Counted from the stretch's first letter, positions 4,179 through 52,725 are shown. The stretch is DNA of 64,000 nt from a candidate division WOR-3 bacterium UBA3073 (GCA_002366725.1 DFBT01000095.1:4910-68909), one strand, 5' to 3'. Notes: a model not told the origin generated them from the letters alone. Numbers and translations: made by a program.

Positions 4179-4383
4179 ACACCCTCCATCTTTCTTTTTA
4201 TGTAAAACTAACTACAGAGTTCACAGATTATGTCAGAAACAGCAATTAGGTTATTAGGTAATTAAGTAATTCCTGTCTACCGACAGGTAGAAAAGAACAC
4301 GCTTGAAAATGACGACCACACCCGATTACTTAATAACTTAATGGTTTATATCTTGTCCATACGGATCTTGAGATGCTAATCTT

Positions 4384-4424
4384 GCCTGCCTGCCCATACG
4401 GGTCCGCAGGGACCGGTAGGCAGG
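4384..4424. repeat. Split copy of GC-rich palindromic intergenic repeat (CCTGCCTGCC-[catacgggtccgcagggac]-CGGTAGGCAGG)
   Basis: Read directly; downstream of rpsI. Confidence 0.8.
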
Positions 4425-4459
4425 TGTTAATCTCGTGGTTTATTAAAGCACAACAGGAG

Positions 4460-4852
4460 TTATCTCTTTGAGAACTGGAATCTCTTTCTCGCCTTTGGAT
4501 GTCCGTATTTCTTTCTCTCCACCTCTCTGGGGTCCCTGGTAAGCAACCCTTCTTTTTTAAGGGATGGTTTTAAGTCGGGTTCCAGTGCCACGAGCGCCCT
4601 CGCTATTCCAAGTAAGATTGCCTCTGCCTGACCCCTTATACCACCACCCTCAACCTTTGCGCTTATATTGAATTTATCCATCGTGTCGGTAACGCGCAGG
4701 GGAGATTTTGCATTGTATATCAGATCCTCTCTTCCCCCAAAGAACTCGGTGAGCTCTTTTCCGTTCACCATTATTTTCCCTTCTCCCTCGGTGAGTTTTA
4801 CGCGGGCGGTTGCCCTCTTACGCCTCCCCGTCTTTAATAATACCTGTTCCAT
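4460..4852 (-). CDS. rpsI: 30S ribosomal protein S9
   Basis: C-terminal 'KYGHPKARKRFQFSKR' S9 signature, 130 aa. Confidence 0.95.
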   Translation of the reverse strand: MEQVLLKTGRRKRATARVKLTEGEGKIMVNGKELTEFFGGREDLIYNAKSPLRVTDTMDKFNISAKVEGGGIRGQAEAILLGIARALVALEPDLKPSLKKEGLLTRDPREVERKKYGHPKARKRFQFSKR

Positions 4853-4871
4853 GTTCCCTCCATTAATGAAA

Positions 4872-5306
4872 TCAAAAAAGCACTAAATATTTTTCCGTTC
4901 CCCTGTTTGTCTGCTCCAGTTCTATTGGGTTTTGTGCCTTGTGGGGATGCTCGCTTCCCGGATAGACCTTCAGCTTCTTTATCATCTTCCTGCCAAGGGG
5001 CCCCTTTGGAAGCATCCCTTTGACGGCGTGGTGAATTATCTCCTCGGGTTTCTTCTTTCTCATCTCTTTCAAGGTGGTCTTCTTTAACCCTCCTGGGTAT
5101 CCTGTGTATCTCGTGTATACCTTCTCTGTCTCTTTCTTCCCCGTAACCTTCACCTTGCTCGCATTTATACATATGACATAGTCTCCCATATCCGCATTTG
5201 GAGTAAACTCTGGCTTATGTTTACCCCGCAATATTGTGGCGATCCTTGTTGCAAGTCTACCGAGTATCTTTCCATCTGCATCTATTATATACCACTTCTT
5301 TTCCAT
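4872..5306 (-). CDS. rplM: 50S ribosomal protein L13
   Basis: '[32 protein letters not shown]' L13 signature; classic rplM-rpsI pair. Confidence 0.95.
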
Positions 5307-5452
5307 AAAGCCCCCGTAACAAGATTAAAAATCAAAAATCAAAATGCAAAACTACTGAGGTAAAGGTCTAATTTCTAATGTCAAATGTCTAATCAATGAC
5401 TGACAGTTAGTCATTGGGTCATTGGTCTGTGGTCATTTGGTCATTAGAAATT

Positions 5453-5472
5453 CCTGCCTACCGGTAGGCAGG
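5453..5472. repeat. 20-bp perfect palindrome CCTGCCTACCGGTAGGCAGG
   Basis: Read directly; downstream of def, flanked by TTAGACATT/GTCATTG micro-repeats. Confidence 0.85.
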
Positions 5473-5513
5473 CGTCATTAGACATTTCATTTTGCATTTT
5501 CGAGTTGGTAGCT

Positions 5514-6020
5514 CTACTCCCTTCCCCTCACCTGGAATGCGGGCAGTGTGGGATTATAATTCATGTTGAATTTCAGTAGTGCCTCTTTAGAGAGAAAATC
5601 AATTATCAACTTCCCCTGTAGATGGTCGATTTCATGTTGTATCACCCTTGCAAGGAGGTCTTTCGCCTTGATGTGTATTTCTTTACCCTCTATGTCGCAG
5701 CCTCTGATCTCAATAAGAAAGGGTCTTTTGATTTGGACTGATGCCCCCGGGATGGAGAGACAACCCTCCTCAAATATCTCTTTACCCTTACTTTTGATGA
5801 TTTCGGGATTAACTATGTATAGGGGACCCCGTCCAATATCGACCACAATAATTCTCTCTAAAATGCCGATTTGGGGAGCGGCGAGCCCTATTCCGTCGAG
5901 CCTCTGCATAAACTCTGTCATTGAGGTAGCTATCTTCTGAAGTCTCTCGTCGAATGTCGACACGGGTTTGCTCTTCTCCCTCAATACATGGTCGGGATAT
6001 ATGCGTATCGTTAACTCCAT
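5514..6020 (-). CDS. def: Peptide deformylase
   Basis: Motifs 'GIGLAAPQIG', 'EGCLSIPG', 'QHEIDHLQG'; start probably internal M (MELTIRIYPD), the ORF track extends to 6050. Confidence 0.9.
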   Translation of the reverse strand: MELTIRIYPDHVLREKSKPVSTFDERLQKIATSMTEFMQRLDGIGLAAPQIGILERIIVVDIGRGPLYIVNPEIIKSKGKEIFEEGCLSIPGASVQIKRPFLIEIRGCDIEGKEIHIKAKDLLARVIQHEIDHLQGKLIIDFLSKEALLKFNMNYNPTLPAFQVRGRE

Positions 6021-6249
6021 AAATGCATTTTTTACTGTAGATATAACCACGAAGACACAAAGAGCACAAAGACACCAAAACTAAGAATTGAAGATTGAAG
6101 ATTTTAGATTGTAGATTGCAGTTCGTCATTAGTCCTTTATCCTTTTACCTTTTTCCTTTCCAGTGATTAGCGATGACCGATTACCGATTATCCGCAGGTC
6201 ACAGACTCGTCCGCAGGATCCGTATGGATATGAGATCCGTATGGACTGG

Positions 6250-7959
6250 TTACCGGTTTTGTGTAATACTTATCCCGAGTTCCTTCAGTTTTTCATCTTC
6301 TATCTCCGACGGGACATTCTCCATAAGGCCTGTACCGGTAAGTGTCTTCGGAAATGGAATCACCTCCTGGATCGAATTCTCTCCCGACAATATCATGAGA
6401 AGTCTGTCAAGTCCAATGGCTATCCCTCCGTGTGGTGGCGCACCATAGGTCAGAGCGGAGAGGAAGAATCCGAATTCTCTGTCCCTCTTCTCTTTACTCA
6501 TACCACCTATCTCCATCATCTTTTCCTGCAGGACTCTGTCGTGGATTCTTATGCTGCCCGACCCGAGTTCCGTTCCATTGAGGACGAGGTCGTACTGTTT
6601 CCCGGTCACCTTCGAGGGGTCCACAAAATCATCGGTCTTTGGCATTGTGAATATGTGGTGGCAGGGCATCCAACCGCCCGTTTCCCCATCCCACTCAAAG
6701 AGCGGGAAATCAGTTACCCAGAGCAGCTTGTACTGCTCCTTTGGAGTTTCTCCCACGAGTATCTTATTCCTGACGGCACCGAGGGTCTCGAGACTTCTCT
6801 TCCAATCACCCGCACAGAAGAGTACGGTCTTCTCCCCGCTTATTGAGAGTGCAGATTTCAATTCGCCGGAGAGTTCCGGGGAAAAAAACTTTGCAACATT
6901 ACCCGACAGGGTCTCCCTAAATGACAGATACGAGATTTTGCTGTTGTAGTATTTGAGAGCGAACTCCGAAAGTTCATCGATGTTCTTCCTTGTGAGTGGG
7001 GGGACAGTTATAGCCTTTATGAACTTTGCCTCTTTGAAGATTCTGAACTCACTCTTTTTTGCTATGTCTGTAACATCGGATATATATACATCAAACCTCG
7101 CATCGGGCTTGTCACTTCCGTATTTCTCCATGGCATTTCTGTATGTGAGTCTCTCGAAGGGAGCCCTTATTTTTATACCGAGAATATTTTCAAAGACAGC
7201 ACTTATCATCCCCTCCACAAGATTCATAATATCATCTTCATCCACAAAACTCGCTTCGAGGTCTATCTGTGTATGCTCTGGCTGGCGGTCGGCTCGCTGG
7301 TCCTCGTCTCTGAAACATCGAGCAAATTGAAAGTATCTGTCAACGCCCGCGATCATCAATAGTTGTTTATAAATTTGAGGTGACTGGGCAAGTGAATAGA
7401 ATTTGCCGTTAAAATTTCTCGAGGGCACCACGAAATTTCTTGCCCCCTCTGTGGTTGTGAGCGTGAGATACGGGGTTTCTATTTCGAGAAAATTCCTCTC
7501 TGACAGATAGGTCCTCACGGTGTTAATGAGTTGCGACCTCATCAGGAGTTTTTTCTGCATCGATGGTCTGCGGAGGTCAAGATATCTATACTTCATCCTC
7601 AGCTCATCCTTTGCCGTTATGGGGTCCTTTATCACAAAAGGTGGAACATCGGAGGGGGAAAGAAGTTTCATTTGAGATGCCACCACCTCGATCCCGCCGG
7701 TGTCGAGAGACAGATTTCGCATGCCAGAAGGCCTCTCTCTGACCATTCCCTCAACTTGCACCACATATTCTCCGCCAAATTCACTCGCCTTTTCTATAAG
7801 TTCTGTATTCGCTAAAACCACCTGTGTTACGCCGTATCTATCTCTCAGGGAGATAAAGACCATCTTGCCGTGGTCCCTTATTGCGTCTATCCATCCCTGG
7901 AGTGTCACATTCTCTCCGGAATTTTTCTCTCTCAGTTCTCCGCAGGTATGTGTGCGCAT
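6250..7959 (-). CDS. aspS: Aspartyl-tRNA synthetase
   Basis: N-terminal OB-fold 'MRTHTCGELR', class II aaRS motifs 'FRDEDQRADRQPEHTQID', 'GGIAIGLDRLLM', 569 aa. Confidence 0.95.
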   Translation of the reverse strand: MRTHTCGELREKNSGENVTLQGWIDAIRDHGKMVFISLRDRYGVTQVVLANTELIEKASEFGGEYVVQVEGMVRERPSGMRNLSLDTGGIEVVASQMKLLSPSDVPPFVIKDPITAKDELRMKYRYLDLRRPSMQKKLLMRSQLINTVRTYLSERNFLEIETPYLTLTTTEGARNFVVPSRNFNGKFYSLAQSPQIYKQLLMIAGVDRYFQFARCFRDEDQRADRQPEHTQIDLEASFVDEDDIMNLVEGMISAVFENILGIKIRAPFERLTYRNAMEKYGSDKPDARFDVYISDVTDIAKKSEFRIFKEAKFIKAITVPPLTRKNIDELSEFALKYYNSKISYLSFRETLSGNVAKFFSPELSGELKSALSISGEKTVLFCAGDWKRSLETLGAVRNKILVGETPKEQYKLLWVTDFPLFEWDGETGGWMPCHHIFTMPKTDDFVDPSKVTGKQYDLVLNGTELGSGSIRIHDRVLQEKMMEIGGMSKEKRDREFGFFLSALTYGAPPHGGIAIGLDRLLMILSGENSIQEVIPFPKTLTGTGLMENVPSEIEDEKLKELGISITQNR

Positions 7960-8113
7960 AATAAGCTAAAAAATGGACGCAGATTAACGCAGATGTAATA
8001 AAAAGTTTACTCGTTGGAATTTAAATAATCAGCGTCCCAGAACAGGTCTTTGAAATAAAAAAATCTGTTTTTTATCCGCGTAGATCGGCGTCCCCAAAAA
8101 ATGACTTCAATAT

Positions 8114-8545
8114 TTACCTATCGAGGTCCTTAATGAGTTCAACGAGTTCTTCAACTGAAGCGACATTCAGTACTTGTGACCGGAATTCCTCTGTATTGGC
8201 CAACCTTATGAGACGAACAAGTATCTCTGTATATTTTTTCCTTTCGTGTTCGGGGAAAATAAGTAGCCATATTATCTTTACCGGTTTACGGTCGAGTGTC
8301 CCGAACTCTATACCACCCCGGGAGAGTCCAAGCGAAAGTGTTGCCTCTTTTACTTCTTTTCCCAGGTATCTTGGAATGGCAACACCACATCCTATTCCCG
8401 TGGGAAACTCTCTCTCCCGTGCATATATCCTCTGAAGCACGGGCGGGGGCTGGTCCGTGGTCTCAAAGAGCTCCTTCACGGCCTGTCGTTTTTCACGCGA
8501 CCTCAAGTGGTTCTTGAATCTTCCTTTCAAATAATTCTCTATCAT
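8114..8545 (-). CDS. ptsN: PTS EIIA type-2 (PtsN/nitrogen regulatory IIA-like) protein
   Basis: 143 aa, EIIA-2 fold signature around 'GIGCGVAIPRYLGKEV...GIEFGTLDRKPVKIIWLLIFPE'. Confidence 0.7.
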   Translation of the reverse strand: MIENYLKGRFKNHLRSREKRQAVKELFETTDQPPPVLQRIYAREREFPTGIGCGVAIPRYLGKEVKEATLSLGLSRGGIEFGTLDRKPVKIIWLLIFPEHERKKYTEILVRLIRLANTEEFRSQVLNVASVEELVELIKDLDR

Positions 8546-8599
8546 TATAGATACCTGGGATTGAAAATGCGGAAGAGTCCCGCCATTTTGCTTCTCTTT

Positions 8600-9916
8600 T
8601 TACAGGATATACCTTGCAATGTCCACGTTCTTAACGATGTCTTTCAATCTCTCTCTCACATCATTTTCTTCAATGTGTACCTTTTTTATGCCTCTCTTTG
8701 GAACTTTATATAACCAATCCTCCATCAGTGCGAACATTATTGTGTGTAACCTCCTTGCGCCTATATCATCGGTGGTCTCGTTCACTTTTGCGGCGTATTC
8801 TGCGATCGCATCTATTGCCATTTCGTCAAACGACATATCGACCTTCTCGGTCTTAAAAAGTGCAATGTATTGTTTTATCAGGGCGTTTTCTGGTTCTGTA
8901 AGAATTCTTTTGAAATCTTCCTTTTTCAGTCGGGCGAGTTCAACCCTTATGGGAAATCTTCCCTGAAGTTCGGGGATTAGATCGGATGGCTTCGACGAGG
9001 TGAATGCACCCGCCGCTATGAACAATATGTGGTCTGTCCTTACCATTCCGTACTTCGTTGTAACATTGCATCCCTCAACAATTGGCAGAAGGTCCCTTTG
9101 AACACCCGCTCTGGAGACATCGGGGCCACCTCTGCCGTCTGCGCCCACGATTTTATCGAGCTCATCTATGAATATTATACCCGAGTTTTCCATATTCTCC
9201 TTTGCCTCGCTTATCACCTCTTCCATATCGACAAGTTTCTGCGCCTCTTCCTGTGCGAGGATTTCTTTTGCCTCGTTGACCTTGATTCTCTTCGTCTTGT
9301 GCTTTTTGGGGGCGATGGACGACATCATATCCTGAATATCGGTATTGATCTCCTCCATACCCATGGGACCGAATATCTCTATAAGGGGAAATGATTGGAC
9401 ATATACGGGAACATTAACAAACCTATCCTTGAGTGCGCCCTTACGCAATAATTTTCGCAGCTTATCACGCGATTCCTTCTGTTTTTCCTTATTCTCCCCC
9501 GGTAGAAGCAAGTCCAGCAACCTTTCTTCTCCCCGTTCTCTCGCTCGTTCCGCCACCTCGATCTGCCTTCGAGCCTTCACCATATTCACGGATATATTCA
9601 TGAGGTCTCTCACCATGGCTTCCACATCCCTTCCAACATATCCCACCTCGGTATATTTTGACGCCTCGACCTTCATAAACGGTGCGTTGACGAGCCTCGC
9701 AATTCTTCTCGCTATCTCCGTTTTTCCAACACCCGTCGGACCAATGAGTATCAGGTTGTTTGGGAGTATCTCTTCTCTCATGAGGCCCTTCACCCTCTGT
9801 CGCCTCCACCTGTTGCGGATTGCTATTGCAATAGCACGTTTTGCTTCGCTCTGACCGATGATATGTCGGTCGAGTTCCTTTACTATCTCCTTTGGTTTTA
9901 GTTCTCTTTTGTTCAC
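8600..9916 (-). CDS. hslU: ATP-dependent protease ATPase subunit HslU
   Basis: '[29 protein letters not shown]', Walker A '[15 protein letters not shown]', 438 aa, adjacent to hslV. Confidence 0.95.
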
Positions 9917-10440
9917 AACGTTTCCACCCTTATGTTGTCATTTGTGTACACACATATAGACGAGGCTGTTCTTATGGATTCCTCCACGATCTCCTTTGCG
10001 GAGAGATTCGTGTATTTTATCAGAGCCCTTGCCGCCGCAAGCGCATAAGGTCCTCCAGAGCCTATTGCAACTATGCCGTCGTCGGGCTCGATCACATCCC
10101 CGGAGCCCGAGATGAGAAATGCTGAGTCCTTATCCAATACCACCAACAGCGCATCGAGCCTTCTCAGAACCTTGTCAGTCCTCCAGTCCTTTGCGAGATT
10201 CACGACAGATTTCTGCAGATTACCGTGCGATTCCTCCAGTTTCTTCTCAAACCTTTCAAACAATGTAATTGCATCGGCAACACCGCCAGCGAACCCCGCC
10301 AGGATTTTGTCCTCATAGAGTTTTCTTATCTTATTCGCTCCGTGTTTCACTATCGTCTTCTCAAGCGTGACCTGCCCGTCTCCGCCGATGGCTGCCTCAC
10401 CTTTACGGCACACACCTATTATGGTTGTAGATAGAAACAT
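9913..10440 (-). CDS. hslV: ATP-dependent protease subunit HslV
   Basis: N-terminal Thr protease '[21 protein letters not shown]', 175 aa, 4-nt overlap with hslU. Confidence 0.95.
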
Positions 10441-10521
10441 AATAAAATGTCTAATTTCTAATGCCGAATGTCTAATCGATGCCTAATTGTTAGTTATTGA
10501 GTAATTAACTAATTAAGTCTC

Positions 10522-10575
10522 CAGTCTGTGGTCTTTGGTCTGTAGTCTGTGGTCTGTAGTCTGTGGTCTGTAGTC
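10522..10575. repeat. Heptad micro-tandem array (TCTGTGG/TCTGTAG)x~7.5
   Basis: 'tctgtggtctttggtctgtagtctgtggtctgtagtctgtggtctgtagtc' between hslV and guaB. Confidence 0.85.
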
Positions 10576-10578
10576 ATT

Positions 10579-12012
<1,434 letters not shown>

Positions 12013-12159
12013 TTATGCGTTAGCCACAGATTTCACAGATTATATCAAAAACAGTAATTGGGTTATTGGGTAATTAAGTAATTAAATCTCCGGTCTTTAG
12101 TCTGTGGTCTTCGGTCTGTAGTCCTTTTATTTCACATTTTGACTTTTGCAATGTGTGTC

Positions 12160-13930: not shown

Positions 13931-14067
13931 AGTTTAACGGGTGAACTTGTGTGCATCAATTGGTATATAAGTATACAACAAAAGTTGCATTTTGTCAAGA
14001 AAAAAGTTAACTCTTTTGTTCCGAGTGGGTGTAAAAGCGGGATATGGTCGAATACAGGTTTTTTGAT

Positions 14068-15462: not shown

Positions 15463-15470
15463 CCCACAAT

Positions 15471-21980: not shown

Positions 21981-21983
21981 TTG

Positions 21984-31612: not shown

Positions 31613-31772
31613 TTCTCATTCAGTATAAAAAATGCCAGGCAGAGGCCTGGCTTAATTGCTGTACTACAGGTATACGCGGGTATACGCCAATAGGTAACTA
31701 TTACTGTAGTTTTCTACCAGGTCGCATACCCTTATGCCCTATAGGCACCCCCGGGTAAAATTGAAAATTAAA

Positions 31773-31792
31773 CCTGCCTGCCGGTAGGCAGG
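31773..31792. repeat. 20-bp palindrome CCTGCCTGCCGGTAGGCAGG
   Basis: Downstream of ftcD, preceded by 'ttgaaaattaaa'. Confidence 0.85.
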
Positions 31793-31918
31793 AATCAAAA
31801 TGCAAAATGAGTTATCTTTCACCTAACACCTATCACCTAAATTATACACCCGATTTTTCAAAATGTCAAGAAAAAAATTATCAGTGAATAGTGAATGCCT
31901 GATAGCCCAATACCCCCA

Positions 31919-33586: not shown

Positions 33587-33987
33587 ACACCCCCCAGGGT
33601 AAAATCAAATATCAAATATCAAAAATTAAAATTGTTATTTTTGGACGCAGATTTACGCTGATACTTTAAGATTATAGAATTATTAAAGCGACGACCTTTA
33701 GAACAGAGTGCTTGCCAAAGCCAGAGTATAACAGAGTAGTGGATACTCTAATTACTTAATAAATTAATTACTATTTTCGTCTGCGCCTTTCTGCGTTTAC
33801 CCCGTTAAATAGAACTGTTTCGAGAACGCTCTGATATTTATCGTTATATTATTTAACGGGGTGAATCTGTCCCGCTTTCTTCGGGATCCCGCCAAAGGCG
33901 GGACGTCCGATTGGTTTTTTATTTTACACCAACTTTTCACTTTTGTCAAGTCTTTTTCAGAAAACATTGATTTTTTTCAAAAAAAAC

Positions 33988-34016
33988 TTGAAATTTTCGG
34001 AATTTTGTGTTATAAT
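33988..34016 (+). promoter_or_regulatory. Sigma70-like promoter upstream of folK (TTGAAA-17-TATAAT)
   Basis: Consensus-like hexamers with 17-nt spacer ~105 nt upstream of folK start. Confidence 0.5.
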
Positions 34017-34120
34017 ATATAGAAAGGGGATTCAATACATTTTTGTTTTTTTTAAATCTTTGTATCCTGGCTATTTTATGCCGTTTGCTTTTTGGGTGAG
34101 TTAAAGGAGTGTGATATTGA

Positions 34121-38292: not shown

Positions 38293-38312
38293 CCTGCCTA
38301 CCGGCAGGCAGG
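38293..38312. repeat. 20-bp palindrome CCTGCCTACCGGCAGGCAGG followed by TTTAATTTT
   Basis: Between lepB and grpE; terminator-like. Confidence 0.85.
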
Positions 38313-38335
38313 TTTAATTTTGCTCTGGGGGGTGT

Positions 38336-38812: not shown

Positions 38813-38816
38813 TATT

Positions 38817-40808
38817 ATGGCAAAGAAAGAGAGGGTAATAGGTATAGACCTTGGAACGACAAATTCCTGTGTTGCTATCGTGGATGGTAGTGAGAGGGTT
38901 GTCATACCCAATCCCGAAGGTGGCAGAACCACACCATCTGTGGTTGCATTTAGTACAAAGACAAAGGAATGGGTTATTGGTCCTTCGGCGAAGAGACAGA
39001 TGATAACAAATCCAGAGAATACGATATATTCCATAAAGAGGTTTATGGGCAGGAGATATAACGAGGTCACAGAGGAGATGAAACTTGTGCCGTATAAGGT
39101 TGCAGAGGGTCCACATAAAGATGCAAGGGTACTTGTTGCCGGCAAGCAGTTTTCACCGCCCGAAATATCTTCTATGATACTCAAATACCTTAAGGAGGCA
39201 GCGGAGGCATATCTCGGAGAGAAGGTCACAAAGGCAGTGGTTACCGTTCCCGCTTATTTCAACGATTCGCAGAGACAGGCAACGAAGGATGCCGGAAAGA
39301 TAGCGGGGCTTGAGCTGCCGAGAATCATAAACGAACCAACCGCCGCATCGCTTGCATACGGTCTCGGTTCCTCAAAGAAACAGAGGGTTGCGGTGTTTGA
39401 CCTGGGTGGCGGAACATTCGATATATCCATCCTGGAGATAGACATGAGAGAGACACCGCCGGTAATTGAGGTTATCGCGGTAAATGGTGATACGCACCTC
39501 GGTGGAGACAATTTTGACCAGCAGATATTGGATTGGATTGCCGATGAGTTCCGAAAAGAACACGGAATCGATTTGAGGAAGGACAAGGCAGCCCTTCAGC
39601 GTATCAGAGATGCCGCAGAGAAGGCAAAATGCGAACTCTCTACGGTTCTTGAGATCGACATCAATCTTCCCTTCGTCACGGCGGACGCATCAGGTCCAAA
39701 GCATCTCGAGATGAAGCTGACGAGGGCGAAACTCGAATCGCTGGTGTCGGATCTACTGGGACGCATGAGACCGCCAACGGAAAGGGCGCTTGAAGATGCA
39801 TCGAAGAAGGCAGGCTCCGGTATAAAGGGCATTGAGGATATAGACGAGGTAGTACTCGTGGGTGGTATGACGAGGATGCCAAAGGTGCAGGAGTTTGTCA
39901 AGGTTTTCTTTGGTAGAGAGCCACACAAGGGTGTAAATCCCGACGAGGTTGTTGCGATCGGCGCGAGCATTATGGGTGATATGCTTTCAACGGGAGAAGA
40001 GGGGAAAAAGGAAGTTCTTCTTTTGGATGTAACCCCACTCACACTTGGTATCGAGACACTTGGAGGGGTTATGACGCCGATAATACCGAGAAATACCACG
40101 ATTCCCACCCGTAAGAGTCAGATATTTACGACTGCACAGGATGGACAAACAGCCGTTACCATACATGTACTTCAGGGAGAACGTCCAATGGCAACGGACA
40201 ATCGCACACTCGGCAGATTTGACCTTATGGGTATTCCCCCCGCTCCGAGGGGAATTCCACAGATTGAGGTTACATTTGATACAGATGCCGATGGAATAAT
40301 GCATGTCTCTGCCAAGGACAAGGCAACGAGCAAGGAGCAATCTATCCGTATAACATCCTCCTCGGGGTTATCCAAGGAAGAGATAGAGAAGATGCAGAAG
40401 GAGGCGAAAGAGCACGAGGCGGAAGATAGGAAGAAAAAGGAGCTGATAGAAGCGAGAAACCAGGCAGATACAGTCATTTATTCGGTAGAGAAGTCATTGA
40501 AGGAATTTGGCGATAAGGTGACGCAGGAGGAGAGAGGTGCCATAGAGAATGCCATCGCATCTTTGAAGAAGGTGAAAAATGGTAATGATACAGAGGCAAT
40601 AAAGAAAGCGATGGACGGGGTGCAAAAGGCATCTTATAAATTGGCTGAAGAGATGTACAAGAAGACGGAGGAGGGTAAGACGGAGGAGGGTAAGACGGAG
40701 GAGGGTAAGACAGAGAAGAAGGAGGAACCCAAAAAGGAGGAAGGTCCACAGGAGGCAGAGTACGAGGTGGTAGATGAGGAAGAGAAGAAGAATGATGAGG
40801 ATAAGTAG
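38817..40808 (+). CDS. dnaK: Chaperone DnaK (Hsp70)
   Basis: '[14 protein letters not shown]', 'DLGGGTFD', '[10 protein letters not shown]'; start at ATG after AAAAGGAGGTGA; C-terminal (KTEEG)x3 repeat. Confidence 0.95.
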
Positions 40809-40923
40809 GGCGTAGGGAGTAGGGCGTAAGGCGTAGGCGATTAAGTAGTAGGCAGTATGCAGTTATCTGTAACCTACAATCCAAAATCTACAATCTATCT
40901 GCATGACCCAATGACTAAATGTT

Positions 40924-42039: not shown

Positions 42040-42080
42040 ACAATTGTAGGAGAATTGAAGAAATAAAAATAACAGGGATT

Positions 42081-42152
42081 GCCTCCCTGTCCATACGGAT
42101 CCGTAGGGACCGGTAGGCAGGGAAGAGAATATATCCATACGGATCCGTAGGG
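42081..42152. repeat. Split palindrome copy with two CCATACGGATCCGTAGGGA modules
   Basis: Downstream of dnaJ. Confidence 0.8.
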
Positions 42153-42221
42153 AAGAGAAAAGAAAAAAAGGACAAAAAATCTCTTCAATCTGCGTTTATC
42201 TGCGTTCTGAAAAAGAGGGAT

Positions 42222-42930: not shown

Positions 42931-43169
42931 AATGAGTGATATCAGTCTCACAAAAAACCTTACATGATGGAGTGCATCAGCTTGCTGATGCAAAACAAAA
43001 TGAGTAGCATGATATGTCGTAAAGAATCAAAAGAAAGTCACTATTGGATCAAGGTGATTTTAATACTGACGAGTCCTGCAAAATAGAAAATCGGGGATGA
43101 ATAATCGCAAGATCCGTATGGACAAGAATAAATTTAACAGGGATTGAAAGAGAACTTAAGAGAAAAAAA

Positions 43170-43213
43170 CCTGTCTACTCTGCCTACCTGCAGGCAGACG
43201 ACAGGTAGATAAG
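43170..43213. repeat. Nested palindrome CCTGTCTAC-TCTGCCTACCTGCAGGCAGA-CGACAGGTAG
   Basis: Downstream of the nucleotidyltransferase gene. Confidence 0.75.
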
Positions 43214-43364
43214 AAATGAAAAAGGAAAATTTCTTTCAATCTCTTTAAATCCCTGTTTGGAAAAGATCGGTGTATATATGTTTATACTTCGCAGGACATT
43301 AAAAAGTAAATCTCTGTGTTCTCTGCGAACTCTGCAGTTAAACTTATGAAGGGAGGTGAAATGG

Positions 43365-43553
43365 ATGCTGTCGGTGAAGGTGAGGGATGGAGAGTCGTTT
43401 GAAGCTGCATTTCGTAGATTTAAGAGGGAATGCGAGAAGAATCGCATACTGTCTTTGCTGAAGGAACGTGAGTACTACGAAAAGCCGTCCGAACGGCGTA
43501 AGCAGAAGAACGCCAAAAGATTGTGGGCGTCGAGAAAGGGAAGTAAAAAATAG
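43365..43553 (+). CDS. rpsU: 30S ribosomal protein S21
   Basis: '[43 protein letters not shown]' S21 signature; GGGAGGTGA RBS. Confidence 0.9.
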
Positions 43554-43560
43554 TTAGATT

Positions 43561-45804: not shown

Positions 45805-45807
45805 TGA

Positions 45808-45860
45808 GGTGATGGGGTGATGGGGTGATGGGGTGATGGGATGGTGGGTTAATGGGATGA
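45808..45860. repeat. Nonamer tandem (GTGATGGGG)x4 + degenerate units
   Basis: Immediately after mutS2 stop. Confidence 0.8.
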
Positions 45861-45904
45861 TGGGTTTTTGGTAGGAGCGACCTCCTGGTCGCGATAGTGA
45901 TGAA

Positions 45905-46318
45905 TTGATAGGAGAAAAAGTGAAAGAGTATACGAAAAGAAGAAATATTAATCGTGGATATATGAAGTTGGAAGTATGGCAAGATGCAATGGAATTATTC
46001 AAACTTACATCTGGTATAATGTGCGGGACTCCCAATGTAGACTTCAGATTGAGGGGGCAGATTCTTGGTTCTGCTCAATCGATTGCCTCCAATATTGCAG
46101 AGGGATACTGCCGAAGGTCTATTAACGAATATTTATATTTTCTAAATGTTGCACTTGGGTCTTCGGGCGAGGTCATGACCCGTGTAATTGGCGTTAAGCT
46201 TATAGGCCAATTGAGGGAAAAAGATTTTGAGAGCTTTGACGAACTTCATTACAAGGTAGAAAATAAGTTGCTTGCGTTAGTTAAGTCGTTACAAGCAAAG
46301 CGGAGTGATGCGGTGTAG
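45905..46318 (+). CDS. Four-helix-bundle protein (TIGR02436; 23S rRNA intervening-sequence-protein family)
   Basis: 'LEVWQDAMELFKL...LGSAQSIASNIAEGYCR...EYLYFLNVALGSSGEV'; true start may be internal (MKLEVWQ ~45962). Confidence 0.75.
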   Translation: MIGEKVKEYTKRRNINRGYMKLEVWQDAMELFKLTSGIMCGTPNVDFRLRGQILGSAQSIASNIAEGYCRRSINEYLYFLNVALGSSGEVMTRVIGVKLIGQLREKDFESFDELHYKVENKLLALVKSLQAKRSDAV

Positions 46319-46320
46319 TC

Positions 46321-46445
46321 CCCATTGACGCATCAACCCATTAACGCATCAACCCATTAACCCATTAACGCATTAACCCATTAACGCATTAACCCATTAA
46401 CGCATTAACCCGTTAACGCATCAACCCATTAACGCATTAACCCAG
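46321..46445. repeat. 16-bp tandem repeat (CCCATTAACGCATTAA)x~7.5, each unit containing GTTAAC
   Basis: Between the four-helix-bundle gene and dnaG. Confidence 0.9.
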
Positions 46446-46454
46446 TAGTCTCCT

Positions 46455-48104: not shown

Positions 48105-48143
48105 GTAGTTAATTTAAAAATGCCCTTTGAAGGGACTGGAGGG

Positions 48144-49643
48144 ATGATGAGAATAGATTATATCAAGATTCTCAAGTACGCCAATGTTAAAGGTAACCTC
48201 ACCTACGAAGACCTAAACAAATTACTTCCCACGGAATTAATACAGCCGGGTGACATAGATAAAATTATATCTGACCTTCGTGAGCAGGGGGTTACCATTT
48301 CCGGGGAAGATGAATCGGAGAATAAAAAGTTGCAGGAATTGCCCGTCATGGGGGATAGGCTTGAGGACCCCACGAAGATATACTTGAAAGAGATGTCCCG
48401 ATCCGTCCTTCTCAATAAGGAACAAGAGATCGAGTTTTCAAAGACGATAGAATGTGGATATGAACAGATTACGAGGGCTGCATTCTCAACACTCGTTGCC
48501 ATCGATAAGTTGTTATCGTACAGGGAAAAGATATTGACGAACAGGATACCACCGGATGAATTTGTGCGTATAGGTGTTGTGGAGCCCTCAAGACGTGAAC
48601 TACGAAAAGAGAAGGGGAGAATATTATCGAGTCTTGATAAGATCGACGAAAAGAGAACGGAAATACTCAAACTGTATCACAGGGAAATGCTTGAGAAGAT
48701 GGAGAAGAAGAAAGAAGAAATAAAGGAGATGGTCATTGACCTCGGACTTCATTTTCTGTATTTGGATGAGATCGTAAGCACCCTTGAAGAGTATCTGGAG
48801 GAATTAAAGGGCAACGAATCTTGCAAGTGCGAGCTTGAGGCAATACTGGGAATAAAAATAGAGAACCTTCCCGCTCTCATCAAGAGGATAAAGAAGTACC
48901 ACCAGAAGGTTGAAACGGCTAAAGAGTCTATGGTAAATGCGAATGTGAGACTTGTGGTGTCTATAGCGAGGAAATACACCGGCAGGGGGTTGGAGTTTGA
49001 CGACCTCATCCAGGAAGGCAACAACGGTCTCATAAAGGCGGTTGCAAAGTTTAATTATCGCAAGGGGTACAAATTCTCTACATACGCCACCTGGTGGATA
49101 AGGCAAGCCATCTCGAGGGCAATTGCGGACCAGTCAAGGACTATTCGTGTGCCGGTGCATATGCTCGAACTCTCACATCGTGTTCTCAAGGCAACAAAAC
49201 AATTTATTCAGGAGCACGGGAGAGAGCCCACCACAGAGCAATTGTCCTTAATTCTCGATGTTTCGGAGAGAAAGATAAGGACAGTATACCGAATCGCACA
49301 GGATACCATTTCCCTTGATAAACCGGTGGGTAGCGATGAGGATTCATTTTTCGGCGATTTCATAGCGGATGAGAACACCGGTTCACCCGCGGAGGAAATC
49401 GGAAGGATGTTTTTAAAGTGCAAGATCGATGAGATATTGAGTTCGCTTACAAAGAAGGAGAAAGAGGTTATTGAAATGCGATTTGGTCTCATAGACGGTG
49501 TTTCCCGTACACTCGAAGAGGTTGGTAATATGTTCGATGTCACAAGGGAAAGGGTGAGACAGATTGAGCAAAAGGCAGTTAGAAAACTCCGCCATAAAAA
49601 TAGAAAGAAGAAATTGGAGCCTTTTCTGGATTTCTTAAGATAA
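48144..49643 (+). CDS. rpoD: RNA polymerase sigma factor RpoD (sigma-70)
   Basis: Region 2 '[24 protein letters not shown]', region 4 '[20 protein letters not shown]'; start at ATG after GGAGGG. Confidence 0.95.
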
Positions 49644-49716
49644 CACCCGGCACTACCGGTCCGCCCCCGCCGAAGCGGGGCAGACGTCAGGCAAGTTGTC
49701 ATTTTACATTTTGATT

Positions 49717-49736
49717 CCTGCCTGCCGGCAGGCAGG
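49717..49736. repeat. 20-bp perfect palindrome CCTGCCTGCCGGCAGGCAGG
   Basis: Downstream of rpoD, flanked by cattttgatt / tttgattc. Confidence 0.85.
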
Positions 49737-49769
49737 TTTGATTCTTGCATTGTTCAATATGGGGGTGTC

Positions 49770-50216
49770 ATGGTAAATATATTAGACTATCTGAAAGAGG
49801 AAAACATTAAGATAGATTTGGGGGCAAGGAATAAGAAAGAAGTGATAAAGGGTCTTCTTAAATCCAAATCTCTGGATAGCAAGAAGATACTTCAGGGGAT
49901 AATGAAGAGAGAGGAACTCGAATCCACGGGATTCGGCAATGGAATTGCCGTGCCACATGCCCGCATAGACGGGATTCCTTCCATCCTAATTCTTGTGGGT
50001 GTGTCCAGAGAGGGCGTTGAGTTCGATTCACTGGATGGTAAACCCGTAAATCTCGTCTTCCTGATTCTCGCCCCCAAAAGTGAAACAAAACTCTACATAT
50101 ACATCCTTGCAAAACTTATAAAAATACTGGAGAAAAAAAAGAATATAAAGGAACTGATTAGCACCGATACACCCCAATCATTCATAGAAAAACTCCGCAG
50201 TATTGAGGGAATGTAA
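49770..50216 (+). CDS. PTS EIIA type-2 / PtsN-like protein (second paralog)
   Basis: 'GNGIAVPHARIDGI' active-site His region, 148 aa. Confidence 0.7.
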   Translation: MVNILDYLKEENIKIDLGARNKKEVIKGLLKSKSLDSKKILQGIMKREELESTGFGNGIAVPHARIDGIPSILILVGVSREGVEFDSLDGKPVNLVFLILAPKSETKLYIYILAKLIKILEKKKNIKELISTDTPQSFIEKLRSIEGM

Positions 50217-50910
50217 TATGTTCCGACTTATAATTACAGGTGAGGATGAAGGTGCATATAATATGGCAGTGGATTCCGCCATTCTTGAGAAGTTCAAAGA
50301 GGGTAGTACACCCCCAACCATTCGTTTCTTCTGGTTTGCCCCCCCCTGTGTAAGTATTGGCAGGCTTCAGTGTCCGGATACCGTCGACGGTGCGGAATAT
50401 TACCTCGTAAGGAGACCAACCGGCGGAAGGGCTGTGGTGCATGAGGATGACCTCTCGTACAGTATAAGTTGCAAAAGAGATGATTCCGTGTTTGGAGGGA
50501 ATGTACTGCAGACCTATATGAGGTCGTCCCGTATACTCGTAGAAGCGGTGAGACGGCTTGAAATAGACGCTGAGATAGTCAGAACAAGATCGGGTGGTGA
50601 AAGGTCTCCTTTATGCTTTCAATCTAAGAGCAGATACGAAGTCGTAAGCGGTGATAAAAAGATTATAGGAAGTGCCCAGAAGAGGGAAGGCGAGTTCGTT
50701 CTCCTTCAGGGAAGTATTTCTCTCGATGTCGATATGGAGATGGTTATAGACAAATATAGATCGGTTCTCCACGATATGGGCATAGGATATTCGGTGGATA
50801 GTCTTACAGAGGAAGAGAAAACCCTCGCCCTTCTCCATACCCCCATGTTCAGGATAAACAAAATCAAAAATCAAAAATCAAAAATTAGACGTTGTCCCGA
50901 AGTGTTGTGA
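50203..50910 (+). CDS. Lipoate/octanoate-protein ligase family protein (BPL_LplA_LipB catalytic domain)
   Basis: 'RRPTGGRAVVHEDDLSYS' LplA/LipB core; C-terminal 11 aa encoded by the AAAATCAAAAATC repeat. Confidence 0.7.
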   Translation: MRECNMFRLIITGEDEGAYNMAVDSAILEKFKEGSTPPTIRFFWFAPPCVSIGRLQCPDTVDGAEYYLVRRPTGGRAVVHEDDLSYSISCKRDDSVFGGNVLQTYMRSSRILVEAVRRLEIDAEIVRTRSGGERSPLCFQSKSRYEVVSGDKKIIGSAQKREGEFVLLQGSISLDVDMEMVIDKYRSVLHDMGIGYSVDSLTEEEKTLALLHTPMFRINKIKNQKSKIRRCPEVL

Positions 50911-51100
50911 TAACAAAAAAGAGGACACCTGTCATTGCGAGTGAACGAAGTGAACGTGGCAATCTTATCTTTAATATCCCTTATTGCACTCTGTAACGAA
51001 TTCTGTGCAATAAATCCTCTATTGAAATGAAACTTGTTGACATCCAATATAGATAGCTTTGACGAAATCGCAATACTTTGGGACATTCCCCAAAATTAAA

Positions 51101-51141
51101 CCTGCCTGCCGCCTGCCTACCGCAGGCAGGCGGCAGGCAGG
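51101..51141. repeat. Double/nested palindrome CCTGCCTGCCGCCTGCCTACCGCAGGCAGGCGGCAGGCAGG
   Basis: Downstream of the lplA-like gene. Confidence 0.85.
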
Positions 51142-51448
51142 TGCGGTTAATTCTACATAACGGCGACTCATTTTTTATTTGACATTTTGAAAAAAATGTA
51201 GTATAATACAACAGAAGGCAACTTGATTGGTACTGGATATTTTTTCTCTTAAATTTTCTTCAGATCTCTTAAGTTCTCTGTTGATGAAAAGCTTTAAATT
51301 AACAGGGATGGAACGAGAAATGTATGAGATTAAAAAAAAGATAAAAATTCTCTTTCAATCTCTTAAGTTCCCTGTTAAAAAGGAAGTAATCTCTTAAATC
51401 TCTGTTGTTAACTGATAAACTTCAATCAATCTTTTAATCTCTGTGCTC

Positions 51449-51468
51449 CCTGCCTGCCGGCAGGCAGG
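51449..51468. repeat. 20-bp perfect palindrome CCTGCCTGCCGGCAGGCAGG
   Basis: ~50 nt upstream of fabG. Confidence 0.85.
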
Positions 51469-51516
51469 TCTGTGGTTAGATTTTTGACAATGCCTGATGC
51501 TGAATGAGGAGGATAT

Positions 51517-52233
51517 ATGGCGGAGAAGATAAGTATTGTAACGGGGGGTGCGAGGGGGATAGGGAAGACGATAGCTGCCTCGTTGAAGGAGCAAGGAAGC
51601 GGGGTATTTATATGGGATGTGAGCGAGGAGGGAGAGAAGACCGCGGATGAACTCGGAGTAAAATTTGTGAAAGTGGATATATCCAGTTACGAAGATGTGA
51701 ATAAAAATGTGAAGGCTTTATTGGAGGATGTTGGTAAAATCGATGTATTGATCAACAATGCGGGCATAACGAGGGATAATTTACTTTTGAGAATGAGTGA
51801 GGAAGAGTTTGACTCCGTGATACGGGTCAATCTCAAGGGGACATTCAACACCACACATGCGGTGCTTCGCTCCATGATGAAAAATAGATGGGGGAGGATA
51901 GTGAATATTTCCTCCGTCATCGGGATTATAGGCAACAGGGGGCAGGCAAACTATGCCGCATCGAAGTCGGGAATTATAGGATTTACAAAATCGGTGGCAA
52001 AAGAGGTCGCCACTCGGGGAATTACCGTAAACGCAATTGCGCCCGGATTTATAGAAACCGAAATGACGGAGAGGCTTTCGGATGAGGTGAAGACGGCATA
52101 TCTGAAATCCATCCCGATGAGGAGGTCTGGCAGCCCGGACGATGTTGCAAATCTCGTCCTCTTCCTCGTTTCTGACTCCGCCTCGTATATAACCGGTCAG
52201 GTTATACATGTGGACGGAGGAATGCTAATGTGA
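51517..52233 (+). CDS. fabG: 3-oxoacyl-[acyl-carrier-protein] reductase (SDR)
   Basis: 'IVTGGARGIGKTIA', 'NAG', catalytic 'YAASKSGIIGFTKSVAKE', 238 aa. Confidence 0.9.
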   Translation: MAEKISIVTGGARGIGKTIAASLKEQGSGVFIWDVSEEGEKTADELGVKFVKVDISSYEDVNKNVKALLEDVGKIDVLINNAGITRDNLLLRMSEEEFDSVIRVNLKGTFNTTHAVLRSMMKNRWGRIVNISSVIGIIGNRGQANYAASKSGIIGFTKSVAKEVATRGITVNAIAPGFIETEMTERLSDEVKTAYLKSIPMRRSGSPDDVANLVLFLVSDSASYITGQVIHVDGGMLM

Positions 52234-52306
52234 GCCGGCGTAGCTCAGATGGAAGAGCACCTGACTGTGGATCAGGGTGTCATGGGTTCAAGTCCCGTCG
52301 CCGGTA
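52234..52306 (+). tRNA. tRNA-His (anticodon GTG)
   Basis: Hand-folded cloverleaf: acceptor GCCGGCG/CGCCGGT (G1-U72), D-arm GCTC-AGATGGAA-GAGC, anticodon stem CCTGA/TCAGG with loop CTGTGGA, T-arm ATGGG-TTCAAGT-CCCGT, discriminator A; no encoded G-1 or CCA; starts right after fabG stop. Confidence 0.7.
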
Positions 52307-52316
52307 TATACCCCAA

Positions 52317-52356
52317 TATCCCTCGGATGCAGACTGCATTCCGAGGGATATTTTAT
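52317..52356 (+). terminator. Rho-independent terminator hairpin after tRNA-His
   Basis: 'ATCCCTCGGAtgcagactgcaTTCCGAGGGAT' stem followed by ATTTTATTC. Confidence 0.6.
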
Positions 52357-52376
52357 TCAAAATTTAGCCCGTCTAC

Positions 52377-52396
52377 CCTGCCTGACGGCAGGCAGG
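52377..52396. repeat. Palindrome variant CCTGCCTGACGGCAGGCAGG
   Basis: Downstream of tRNA-His and its terminator. Confidence 0.85.
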
Positions 52397-52725
52397 CGAT
52401 ATGTAGAAAAGTATGTTTAAATCTGCCCTGCGTGTCTCTTGTGGGGTATGCAAGTTGAGAAATGGGTATGGAGTGCATTACCTTGTCCATATCCATCTTA
52501 AGATCCGTATGGATACGGATCTCATACGAGTCCGCGACCTATGGACGGACTCTGTGAGGTAATGCAAAATAGCGGGGCAAATGTAACGCTAGGCTTCAGC
52601 CTTACCAATGAAGCGATACCGTTTGGAATGAAATGTAGTTTGGTTGGGCGCTGTCTTCGGTGAGCCTTCGGCGAGCTCAGCCGAGCCGCTCAGCCGAACC
52701 GTTTACAGTGCCAATAATTTTTTTC

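Follow-up and report, generated by a model that had tools for sequence, protein, structure and literature searches.

A 20-bp palindrome in the spacers of a WOR-3 bacterium and of many other bacteria: probably a minimal mobile hairpin

Copies of the palindrome in the window

The 64-kb window (the whole stretch of DNA analysed here, from the candidate division WOR-3 bacterium UBA3073) carries, in spacers next to rpsI, def, rplM, ftcD, grpE, rpoD, the EIIA gene, fabG and a tRNA-His gene, copies of a GC-rich palindrome, CCTGCCTRMCGGYAGGCAGG (hereafter PAL). There are six simple copies, starting at 5453, 31773, 38293, 49717, 51449 and 52377, and five split, nested, doubled or variant ones. PAL has a low-complexity sequence, (CCTG)2CC and then GG(CAGG)2, and in a pattern search of the window each simple copy showed 0-2 mismatches to CCTGCCTGCCGGCAGGCAGG. 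The copies and their carriers are the following.

4272..4290: 19-nt PAL-family variant CCTGTCTACCGACAGGTAG, equivalent to the host element of 43170 without its insert; immediately interior to the left arm (4253-4270) of an 18-nt inverted repeat whose right arm is 4325-4342
4385..4424: split PAL with a 20-nt module after position 9 (CCTGCCTGC / CCATACGGGTCCGCAGGGAC / CGGTAGGCAGG), 36 nt 3' of the rpsI stop codon
5453..5472: simple PAL, CCTGCCTACCGGTAGGCAGG, in the def-rplM spacer; weak T-rich tail, minus strand
31773..31792: simple PAL downstream of ftcD, inserted towards the 5' end of a conserved promoter-to-terminator unit
38293..38312: simple PAL, its end 23 nt short of the grpE start codon
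42082..42121: split degenerate PAL with module 2 after position 9 (CCTCCCTGT / CCATACGGATCCGTAGGGAC / CGGTAGGCAGG)
42135..42154: lone module 2 (CCATACGGATCCGTAGGGAA), 24 nt downstream of the preceding split copy
43134..43257: 124-nt inverted-repeat carrier, MITE-like, with 18-nt inverted ends AACAGGGATTGAAAGAGA ... TCTCTTTAAATCCCTGTT and the next element at its centre
43170..43208: nested element, a 19-nt host CCTGTCTAC^CGACAGGTAG with a 20-nt PAL-like insert TCTGCCTACCTGCAGGCAGA after position 9
49717..49736: perfect PAL between the rpoD stop (73 nt away) and the EIIA start (33 nt away)
51101..51141: doubled PAL with a 19-20-bp stem, upstream of a perfect promoter (51179-51207)
51449..51468: perfect PAL, 48 nt short of the fabG start codon, in the leader; no T-tail
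52377..52396: simple PAL, CCTGCCTGACGGCAGGCAGG, 70 nt downstream of tRNA-His; no T-tail

The family of at least 11 copies or variants described in an earlier note is therefore real, its coordinates being exact for the simple copies and slightly shifted for the composites. No match was found in 100 dinucleotide-preserving shuffles of the window, so that chance should supply none. Every one of the 11 copies lies between genes, while crude ORF calls span about 87% of the window, and the family is in this respect what a REP should be, a short, extragenic and multicopy palindrome. That most copies lie downstream of a gene 3' end, as the same note had it, is true and uninformative, since the genes share one direction within each half of the window, so that every spacer follows one gene and precedes another. 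Ends of the TTAACAGGGAT type, resembling those of the carrier at 43134-43257, also occur at 42069 and at 51299/51368. The tRNA-His gene has its own terminator-like hairpin, and PAL 52377 lies beyond it.

The terminator question

It had also been proposed that the palindromes are bidirectional intrinsic terminators, which selection would hold at gene ends. Predicted RNA folding is compatible with this (about -12 to -17 kcal/mol for the simple copies and -45.6 kcal/mol for the doubled one), a scan rates 31773 (minus strand), 38293 and 49717 as terminator-like and 5453 as weakly so, and in tandem spacers across phyla 31 of 54 copies are nearer to the upstream stop than to the downstream start (manual count). 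A Rho-independent terminator, however, needs more than a stable GC-rich stem-loop. The U-rich tract expected directly 3' of the stem is found, as a T-rich tail on the transcribed strand, at only three or four of the 11 copies (the four just named, weakly at 5453) and is lacking at the other seven; the T-tail of the doubled copy is on the strand that is not transcribed. Nor are the copies placed like ends of transcription units, because those 23, 33 and 48 nt before the grpE, EIIA and fabG starts leave no room for a promoter, and 31773 and 51449 follow perfect promoters (TTGACA-17-TATAAT), the former by about 40 nt (promoter 31869-31841, minus strand) and the latter between promoter 51179-51207 and fabG.

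Moreover, the three T-tailed copies sit in one common word, CATTTTGATT^TTTRAT, whose T-run already exists at the empty orthologous sites of relatives. The tail belongs to the target word, and PAL would look like a terminator only where that word already supplies a T-run. Unlike terminators, which are locally evolved hairpins, PAL is a single repeated sequence that is not conserved at orthologous positions in relatives (see below). Across phyla it is found in 10 divergent and 12 convergent spacers (among the matches listed), and an asymmetric variant has no orientation bias relative to transcription (10 versus 6, manual count). We therefore think it quite improbable that the copies are terminators maintained as such.

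Filled sites, empty sites and nesting

The comparison of orthologous spacers suggested in the earlier note gave a clear answer: in relatives (WOR-3/Stahlbacteria with 85-88% RpoD/GrpE identity), PAL is missing at the same site for all three copies that could be tested. Upstream of the EIIA gene (PAL 49717), the alignment with L123, L124 and L126 has a clean 20-nt gap, and so has that downstream of ftcD (PAL 31773) with L224, in a region otherwise 83% identical. Upstream of grpE (PAL 38293), PAL is absent from L224, L225, L230 and L231, a judgement made by eye, as MAFFT did not place the gap. The doubled copy is absent from L123, and its inner 19-mer, CCTGCCTACCGCAGGCAGG, is also present in L124. 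Paralogous filled and empty sites were found as well within single contigs from unrelated phyla, those of a member of Saccharibacteria (L104, with flanks identical at 28 of 28 bases), of the PVC group (L080), of Dokdonia (L037), of Planctomycetales (L034) and of Daejeonella (L049), again without duplication.

None of the filled/empty pairs, be they orthologous, paralogous or in RAYT genes, has a target-site duplication, and PAL is accordingly gained or lost as an exact 20-nt unit. That it is gained rather than precisely lost is suggested by parsimony only. Duplications of 7 and 14 nt seen beside some copies are only apparent, PAL lying there inside period-7 tandem arrays.

The second module follows the same logic. 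When the window is aligned with L125, whose homologue of the composite at 42082..42121 carries an intact PAL, module 2 appears as a 20-nt gap within PAL. The earlier note had this module standing alone at several places; the sites at about 4356, 6217/6234, 43111 and 52502 hold just a 12-13-nt half-word, GATCCGTATGGA(C), which has nine matches in the window versus 0.32 expected, and the whole 20-nt module is solitary in the window only at 42135-42154. In seven of seven nested cases (four of PAL in PAL, from four unrelated genomes, and three in the window), the insertion point in the PAL-type host is after position 9 or its mirror, 11, and three unrelated modules all have the same constant length of 20 nt. 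The suggestion that the family is modular, REP-like and possibly mobile is thus borne out by precise 20-nt presence or absence, the lack of target-site duplication and a fixed nesting position.

Could such a pattern arise without any enzyme, by short-patch recombination, gene conversion or replication template switching between spacers that have short words in common? Within this genome, short-patch recombination could indeed mimic transposition, since three copies have the same flanks (CATTTTGATT / PAL / TTTRAT), and no transposase was found near the window copies. In addition, PAL is enriched in tandem word arrays, a direct repeat of at least 7 nt being common to both flanks at 22% of sites versus 1.7-5.4% in controls. 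The paralogous pairs of L104, L080, L037, L034 and L049 and the RAYT pairs, however, have unrelated flanks with no common words, homology-driven copying predicts neither the nesting position nor the constant length of the modules, and the identity of PAL across phyla would still require a means of transfer. We regard such an enzyme-free spread as unlikely, if worth keeping in mind.

More generally, PAL is frequently sited either between short tandem word-repeat units or in the loop of an existing hairpin or palindrome, an inverted repeat of at least 7 nt between the flanks being present at 10% of sites versus 2-3.5% in controls. This preference for hairpin loops could mirror the insertions that survive instead of aimed insertion.

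Distribution, relation to known elements and possible mover

The exact 20-mer is present in at least 120 stretches of a genome scan, from at least 10 bacterial phyla that include Bacteroidota, Patescibacteria, Omnitrophota, Planctomycetota, Nitrospirota and Proteobacteria. Among the matches listed, 100 of 126 sites are intergenic, with ORFs spanning about 82% of the DNA; PAL lands almost only in non-coding DNA. In L109, PAL lies within ORFs, and in L211 it forms the variable arm of a tRNA-Met.

One may ask whether so simple a sequence arose many times, by fold-back of a CCTG microsatellite, convergent selection for a GC-rich hairpin, or chance. PAL is of low complexity, and a rough estimate with uniform base composition gives about 4-7 chance matches in 596 Gb, so that a few matches could be fortuitous. 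This hardly accounts for the number of stretches in the genome scan, or for the 35 stretches of viral contigs with PAL versus 0 and 1 for two composition-matched control palindromes; the empty sites inspected hold no CCTG repeat, and boundaries and nesting rule are the same everywhere. We consider independent origins highly improbable and largely refuted.

One could also suspect artefacts of sequencing or assembly (adaptors or junctions, for instance), since metagenome-assembled genomes supply most matches and a few contigs, among them L017 and L232, stop at a copy or shortly after it. We find this scarcely credible: isolate genomes carry PAL too (Winogradskyella echinorum, Olivibacter oleidegradans, Flagellimonas yonaguniensis, Longitalea luteola), four of its sites are identical in L002, which was assembled independently from the same species, it keeps to spacers and has evolved variants, and its absence at matched sites in relatives is a biological pattern and not one of library preparation.

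PAL recurrently hits genes for RAYT (TnpA_REP, Y1/HUH). It lies within RAYT-like genes at two of about 120 random PAL loci (L017 and L116, among the matches listed) and also in L235, and seven of 120 RAYT cluster representatives carry it at one identical nucleotide position. The PAL-bearing alleles are polyphyletic, the nearest allele of each being free of PAL, and two RAYT genes 90% identical differ by a clean 20-nt PAL indel. REP insertion inside the enzyme's own gene is a hallmark of RAYT subclass 2.4, and each RAYT is normally tied to its own REP family (PMC6006769). The Chitinophagales RAYT genes with PAL, however, are flanked by a different hairpin, GGCGCAAGTG...CACTTGCGCC, so that PAL is not their obvious cognate REP; the intact RAYT genes of L233 and L234 are likewise flanked by a hairpin other than PAL. 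A search of the window and of about 100 kb of DNA from relatives found no Y1/HUH gene, and no enzyme could be tied to PAL.

REP families are, as far as is known, species- or genus-specific, and one PAL 20-mer in so many phyla is atypical for them. The likeness to REP/REPIN-RAYT systems is otherwise considerable, especially to those of subclass 2.4 (Quentin et al. 2018, PMC6006769): these too are short (20-40 nt), GC-rich, extragenic, multicopy palindromes, without target-site duplication and with stable hairpins in transcripts (predicted for PAL). REPs have been found inserted within other palindromes (PMC3733652) and within RAYT genes themselves (PMC6006769), as has PAL. On the other hand, PAL starts with CCTG, ends with CAGG and lacks the GT[AG]G or CGTC foot tag by which REPs are defined (PMC6006769, PMC3733652), GTAG being found only near the apex of a minor CCGGTAGG variant. 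Further differences are that no RAYT gene was seen in the window and that, unlike REPINs or BIMEs, PAL is a lone perfect palindrome, whose doubled and nested forms are insertions of module in module and not spaced inverted pairs.

Like MITEs such as Correia/NEMIS or RUP, PAL is non-autonomous and intergenic, with predicted hairpin-forming transcripts, and the carrier at 43134-43257 resembles a MITE; MITEs, however, are 50-500 bp long with terminal inverted repeats and target-site duplications, while PAL has 20 bp and no duplication. Fungal mitochondria harbour very short, mobile GC-rich palindromes in AT-richer spacers (the GC clusters of yeast, the PstI palindromes of Neurospora), which, as PAL, show presence/absence polymorphism and nesting, but in organelle genomes and with unrelated sequences. 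The GTAG/CGTC-tagged repeats and the Rickettsia palindromic elements (about 100-150 bp) are, as far as is known, lineage-specific in sequence. They share with PAL that they are small palindromes of many phyla, some in-frame in genes and some within larger palindromes; what defines the tagged families (Di Nocera et al. 2013, PMC3733652) is a tetranucleotide at the end, and PAL has no such tag.

Taken together, we consider it probable, without being certain, that PAL and its close variants are a mobile DNA module of 20 bp, self-complementary and non-autonomous, in effect a minimal hairpin of the REP kind. Its movement would be that of a folded single strand, excised and reinserted by a HUH/Y1-type enzyme (RAYT or IS200-like) supplied in trans, and may have spread among phyla by horizontal transfer; for the host, each copy would add a strong hairpin, of the folding energy predicted for the simple copies, to a leader, 5' UTR or 3' UTR. 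A bolder proposal, which we offer tentatively and think possible rather than probable, is that PAL is the smallest known self-contained mobile DNA unit, spreading horizontally through these phyla and their viruses as one of a shared set of hairpin words that are found across phyla and nest in one another at a constant position in the loop. Rather than a lineage-specific RAYT, its mover would then be either a HUH enzyme that is promiscuous and travels horizontally, or a universal process of the host that acts on hairpins of single-stranded DNA.

If a bare 20-nt hairpin can move precisely, a mobile element need be no larger than one hairpin, and studies of single-strand cut-and-paste would gain a very simple substrate. 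The occurrence of one 20-mer across many phyla, including the small-genome Patescibacteria, would indicate that either non-coding hairpins or the enzyme moving them have spread horizontally. In practice, copies can be taken for terminators, give rise to spurious small ORFs (CLPAGRQG is one such peptide) and break assemblies; genes, tRNAs and leaders can be interrupted by them. In this genome, strong hairpins appear to have been acquired recently in leaders of central genes, those of the grpE-dnaK-dnaJ operon, of fabG and of a conserved candidate RNA, and the regulation of these genes may therefore differ from that in close relatives.

Copies of the palindrome and the question of termination

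The GC-rich palindrome family reported in the earlier note is real: a search of the whole window with the 20-nt perfect palindrome CCTGCCTGCCGGCAGGCAGG (PAL hereafter), allowing up to 3 mismatches, found six simple copies, against 0 PAL matches in 100 shuffles of the window used as control, and five composite copies were read from the sequence.

PAL copies in the window, named by start coordinate
5453, 31773, 38293, 49717, 51449, 52377: simple copies (pattern search)
4272-4290: 19-nt variant CCTGTCTACCGACAGGTAG (read from sequence, as are those below)
4385-4424: PAL interrupted by a second module of 20 nt
42082-42121: likewise a PAL interrupted by a second module of 20 nt
43170-43208: 19-nt variant with a 20-nt PAL-like insert
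51101-51141: doubled PAL, 19-20-bp stem

All 11 copies lie in spacers, against about 87% of the window under ORFs (crude ORF calls), and the names first given to the flanking genes were borne out. The coding strand changes from minus to plus at 33.6 kb, so each spacer is both 3' of one gene and 5' of the next. The proposal that the second palindromic module also stands alone holds at 42135-42154, the only complete solitary copy in the window; the other sites named for it carry only the 12-nt half-word GATCCGTATGGA, which is over-represented (9 matches in the window versus 0.32 expected).

The idea that PAL acts as a terminator at gene ends must, we think, be largely rejected. In a pattern scan of the 11 copies, only 31773 (minus strand), 38293 and 49717 were terminator-like on the transcribed strand, while 5453 gave a weak call and the doubled copy a call on the non-transcribed strand only. 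The three T-tailed copies have common flanks (CATTTTRCATTTTGATT before PAL, TTTRATT after it), and since the T-rich tail is present at empty orthologous sites, it is part of the target word and older than the insertion. The placement of copies in leaders and after promoters also speaks against termination: the start codon of grpE follows 38293 after 23 nt and the start of EIIA (the gene after rpoD) follows 49717 after 33 nt, 51449 has a perfect TTGACA-17-TATAAT promoter (51179-51207) on one side and fabG on the other, and 31773 lies about 40 nt downstream of a second perfect promoter (31869-31841, minus strand). Judging from these positions, in all four cases the gene or RNA downstream could be made only if transcription ran through the hairpin. 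Across phyla, the spacers holding PAL outside the window are tandem (54), convergent (12) or divergent (10), with no depletion seen from the divergent, promoter-containing ones, and the orientation of asymmetric variants relative to transcription (10 versus 6 by our count) is not significant. PAL is not a conserved terminator.

Several other features of the window were recorded. The second promoter belongs to a candidate small RNA or leader unit (31634-31869, minus strand; 83% identical to 3095-3345 of the relative L224), in which this perfect TTGACA-17-TATAAT promoter is followed by about 215 nt of conserved sequence and a canonical terminator (GCCAGG..CCTGGC with a T-run), upstream of wzy/murJ-type genes; only in the window does the 5' part of the unit contain PAL. 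An Rfam search of the window gave only tRNA-His above threshold, and no family for this unit. No CIRCE operator was found upstream of grpE. The gene strand switch and the cumulative GC-skew minimum coincide at 33587-34120; a replication origin at 33.6-34.1 kb, which they suggest, was rejected for want of a DnaA-box cluster. The region 52776-64000 has a MazEF-like pair (toxin 52987-53343) and, after it, an island of low GC (0.31-0.39) that encodes a 1060-aa SNF2-plus-PLD helicase and a Schlafen/AlbA_2 protein and contains an ORF of 1076 aa; this is probably a defence or mobile island.

Gain or loss of PAL as a precise 20-nt unit

The relatives compared have RpoD or GrpE 85-88% identical to that of the window and coding DNA about 78-82% identical. 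Close homologues of GrpE carry the labels candidate division WOR-3 or Stahlbacteria, and WOR-3/TA06-related genomes have been described from the Santa Barbara oil seep (PMC6786971). When orthologous spacers are compared for presence or absence, as the earlier note had proposed, PAL proves polymorphic at three sites.

Orthologous spacers of relatives opposite window PAL copies
EIIA upstream (L123, L124, L126): clean 20-nt gap opposite the window PAL, both flanks aligning
ftcD downstream (L224): about 260 nt at 83% identity with a single clean 20-nt gap at PAL
grpE upstream (L224, L225, L230, L231): PAL-free, reading CATTTTGATT joined to TTTGATATTG; judged by reading the sequences, as MAFFT placed no clean gap

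The doubled PAL is likewise missing in L123. Both L124 and L125 have PAL at other places, and L002, assembled independently from the species of the window, has four copies in common with it. In another WOR-3 relative (L226, 4325-4894) the lepB-grpE spacer is expanded to about 570 nt and made up of PAL-like and module-2-like units nested in one another; three tandem GTCATACGACCCGTATGG units lie within a split PAL.

Other phyla provide filled and empty sites within single genomes. The flanks of every PAL copy were joined and sought in the same contig, and PAL-free twins without duplication were found in five loci.

PAL-free twins in the same contig
L104, Saccharibacteria: 28 of 28 flanking bases identical; a second PAL variant is inserted 21 nt beyond
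L080, PVC group: empty twin, no duplication
L037, Dokdonia: empty twin, no duplication
L034, Planctomycetales: PAL sits in a hairpin loop, the stem being ATCCCCGA...TCGGGGAT
L049, Daejeonella: empty twin, no duplication

In every paralogous pair the inserted segment is exactly CCTGCC...GGCAGG, 20 nt. Target-site duplication was considered and rejected: abutting repeats of 7, 8 or 14 nt occur at 8 of 169 sites and in none of the true filled/empty pairs, and the apparent duplications arise because PAL lies within period-7 tandem arrays. PAL is thus gained or lost at unrelated sites as an exact unit and without duplication.

The same precision is seen when elements enter one another. In element 43170 the 19-mer seen at 4272 is interrupted after position 9 by a 20-nt insert (the placement is unambiguous), and copies 4385 and 42082 have their 20-nt module after PAL position 9. 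The window composite 42062-42200 is homologous to L125, and because PAL is intact there, module 2 appears as a clean 20-nt gap in the alignment. A systematic test of all loci found PAL within PAL four times, in four unrelated genomes, each time after position 9 or its mirror 11, so that with the three window cases 7 of 7 nested insertions share the loop position C^CGG; the three unrelated modules are all exactly 20 nt. PAL events recur at single nucleotides and, in PAL-type hosts, at one fixed position in the loop. Copies in loops could reflect survivorship rather than targeting. The REP-like, modular and mobile reading of the earlier note is in this way supported, and extended by the filled/empty pairs and the nesting rule.

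Distribution and surroundings of PAL

A scan of 185,579 species genomes gave at least 120 PAL stretches, several of the matches listed coming from isolate genomes.

PAL loci by group among the matches listed (approximate counts, from record titles)
Bacteroidota: about 44
Patescibacteria lineages: about 27
Planctomycetota/PVC: about 9
"delta"/Desulfobacterota/Bdellovibrionota: about 9
Omnitrophota: about 8
Gammaproteobacteria: about 8
Ignavibacteriota: about 4
Nitrospirota: about 3-4
Chloroflexota: about 2
Stahlbacteria: about 1

In a viral contig collection the exact palindrome occurs in 35 stretches (44 sites), against 0 and 1 stretches for two composition-matched control palindromes. Module 2 had no match there and the 19-nt variant one, so these two are lineage-specific whereas PAL is not. 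A plasmid collection gave only imperfect, chance-like matches within genes of cultured Proteobacteria. One viral contig ends in at least 10 tandem 21-nt PAL-like units (CCATGCCTACCGGCAGGCAGG; L220, 3916-4142).

Across phyla, ORFs cover about 82% of the PAL loci, yet 100 of 126 PAL sites fall outside them. At 169 sites the flanks have a common direct repeat of at least 7 nt in 22% of cases (controls: 1.7% with permuted flanks, 5.4% at random adjacent positions) and a common inverted repeat of at least 7 nt in 10% (2-3.5% in controls); since both exceed controls, PAL prefers tandem word arrays and the interiors of larger palindromes. In the window such palindromes include the 124-nt inverted-repeat carrier 43134-43257 and the inverted repeat 4253-4342, and elsewhere PAL lies inside further hairpin words that are found across phyla (L080, position 940; L096).

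Hairpin words co-occur with PAL at window 50947-50980, L080 ~920-980 and L096 ~5720-5790. Two of them, GTCATTGCGAG...GCAATC (11 occurrences) and CCGCCAGCTGGCGG (6), are found in 0.86 Mb of PAL loci versus 0 each in 0.57 Mb of control loci, PAL being sometimes inserted within them. Most window spacers are tandem word arrays of period 7-8 that differ strongly among close relatives (for example 10524-10575, 40805-40837, 45808-45864, 46321-46444, 55018-55075); a 23S-rRNA-IVP-family gene (45905-46318) is flanked by (GGTGATGG)n and (CCCATTAA)n, which by eye look like roughly inverted copies of each other.

PAL also enters genes. In a viral contig (L211, 2239-2330) a tRNA-Met still accepted by ARAGORN has PAL as its long variable arm. 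At L218 ~515, L025 ~4041, L059 ~2127 and L188 ~8616 PAL comes immediately after a tRNA-like 5' fragment, and a tRNA is no longer called. A Ferruginibacter contig (L109) has PAL and the word CCCTCTCC..GGAGAGGG at 1291 and 3540, inside ORFs of 518 and 739 aa that look paralogous, as their flanks are nearly identical; by eye, the sequence downstream of PAL resembles an ATPase motif.

RAYT genes and the nature of the element

HUH/Y1 enzymes of the IS200/IS605 and RAYT types recognise hairpins in DNA, excise with precision and create no duplications. Neither the window nor about 100 kb of DNA from relatives yielded a Y1 gene. Searching all fetched loci with Y1 queries gave three IS200-family subclass 1.2 genes (L013, L054, L083), of which one adjoins PAL, at 14 nt; we consider this association weak, such genes being common in Bacteroidota and only one adjacent to a copy.

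The findings on RAYT genes (TnpA_REP, the transposase tied to REP elements) carry more weight. A RAYT-like gene of Ferruginibacter (L017), with an NHVH motif, has PAL inside the Trp codon of ...ESRKE-W-MLNIF. The ending ...ESRKE-CLPAGRQG, which is PAL at the identical nucleotide, recurs in 7 of 120 cluster representatives of this family, other representatives having different inserts at the ESRKE site or at a second hot spot. The nearest relative of each PAL-bearing allele is PAL-free, and one allele pair with 90% DNA identity differs by a clean 20-nt indel. L116 (Chitinophagales) has a RAYT-like gene in which PAL occupies a different position. Two of about 126 random copies in RAYT genes is far above what we would expect, given the small fraction of a genome that such genes occupy. 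Several mini-palindromes recur at the two hot spots of Chitinophagales RAYT genes (L235/L236; proteins P0121-P0240): the ESRKE^W site receives PAL, the site following ...NNNNKDF receives TCCCGATAGCTATCGGGA, and the insertions cause frameshifts. According to Quentin et al., REP insertion in the enzyme's own gene is a unique feature of RAYT subclass 2.4, which is scattered over several phyla (PMC6006769). That PAL is the flanking cognate REP of the Chitinophagales RAYT was rejected, as the intact L233/L234 genes are flanked by the hairpin GGCGCAAGTG...CACTTGCGCC instead.

We infer that PAL is moved by single-strand "peel and paste" by an HUH/Y1 enzyme of the IS200/IS605 and RAYT type, because the exact unit, the absence of duplication and the fixed positions are signatures of such enzymes; the affinity of PAL for RAYT genes would fit the way these enzymes tend to work close to the gene that encodes them. 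Homology-assisted copying between similar words of one genome may be an alternative. PAL works like a REP, but it has neither the GT[AG]G nor the CGTC foot, forms no inverted doublets and, unlike REPs, is not lineage-restricted in sequence. At 20 bp and without duplication it is not a MITE. We file it as a REP-like mini-palindrome. A full-text literature search with the exact sequences and encoded peptides found no paper, within incomplete coverage that makes an earlier description possible, and a search by concept, with the same limit, no description of such an element.

If PAL moves by such an enzyme, its identity across phyla suggests horizontal transfer of the element, the enzyme or both, for which the copies in viral contigs point to a possible vehicle. 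Two properties make PAL distinctive: the mobile unit is a bare 20 nt that nests by a fixed rule, and its sequence is identical across phyla.
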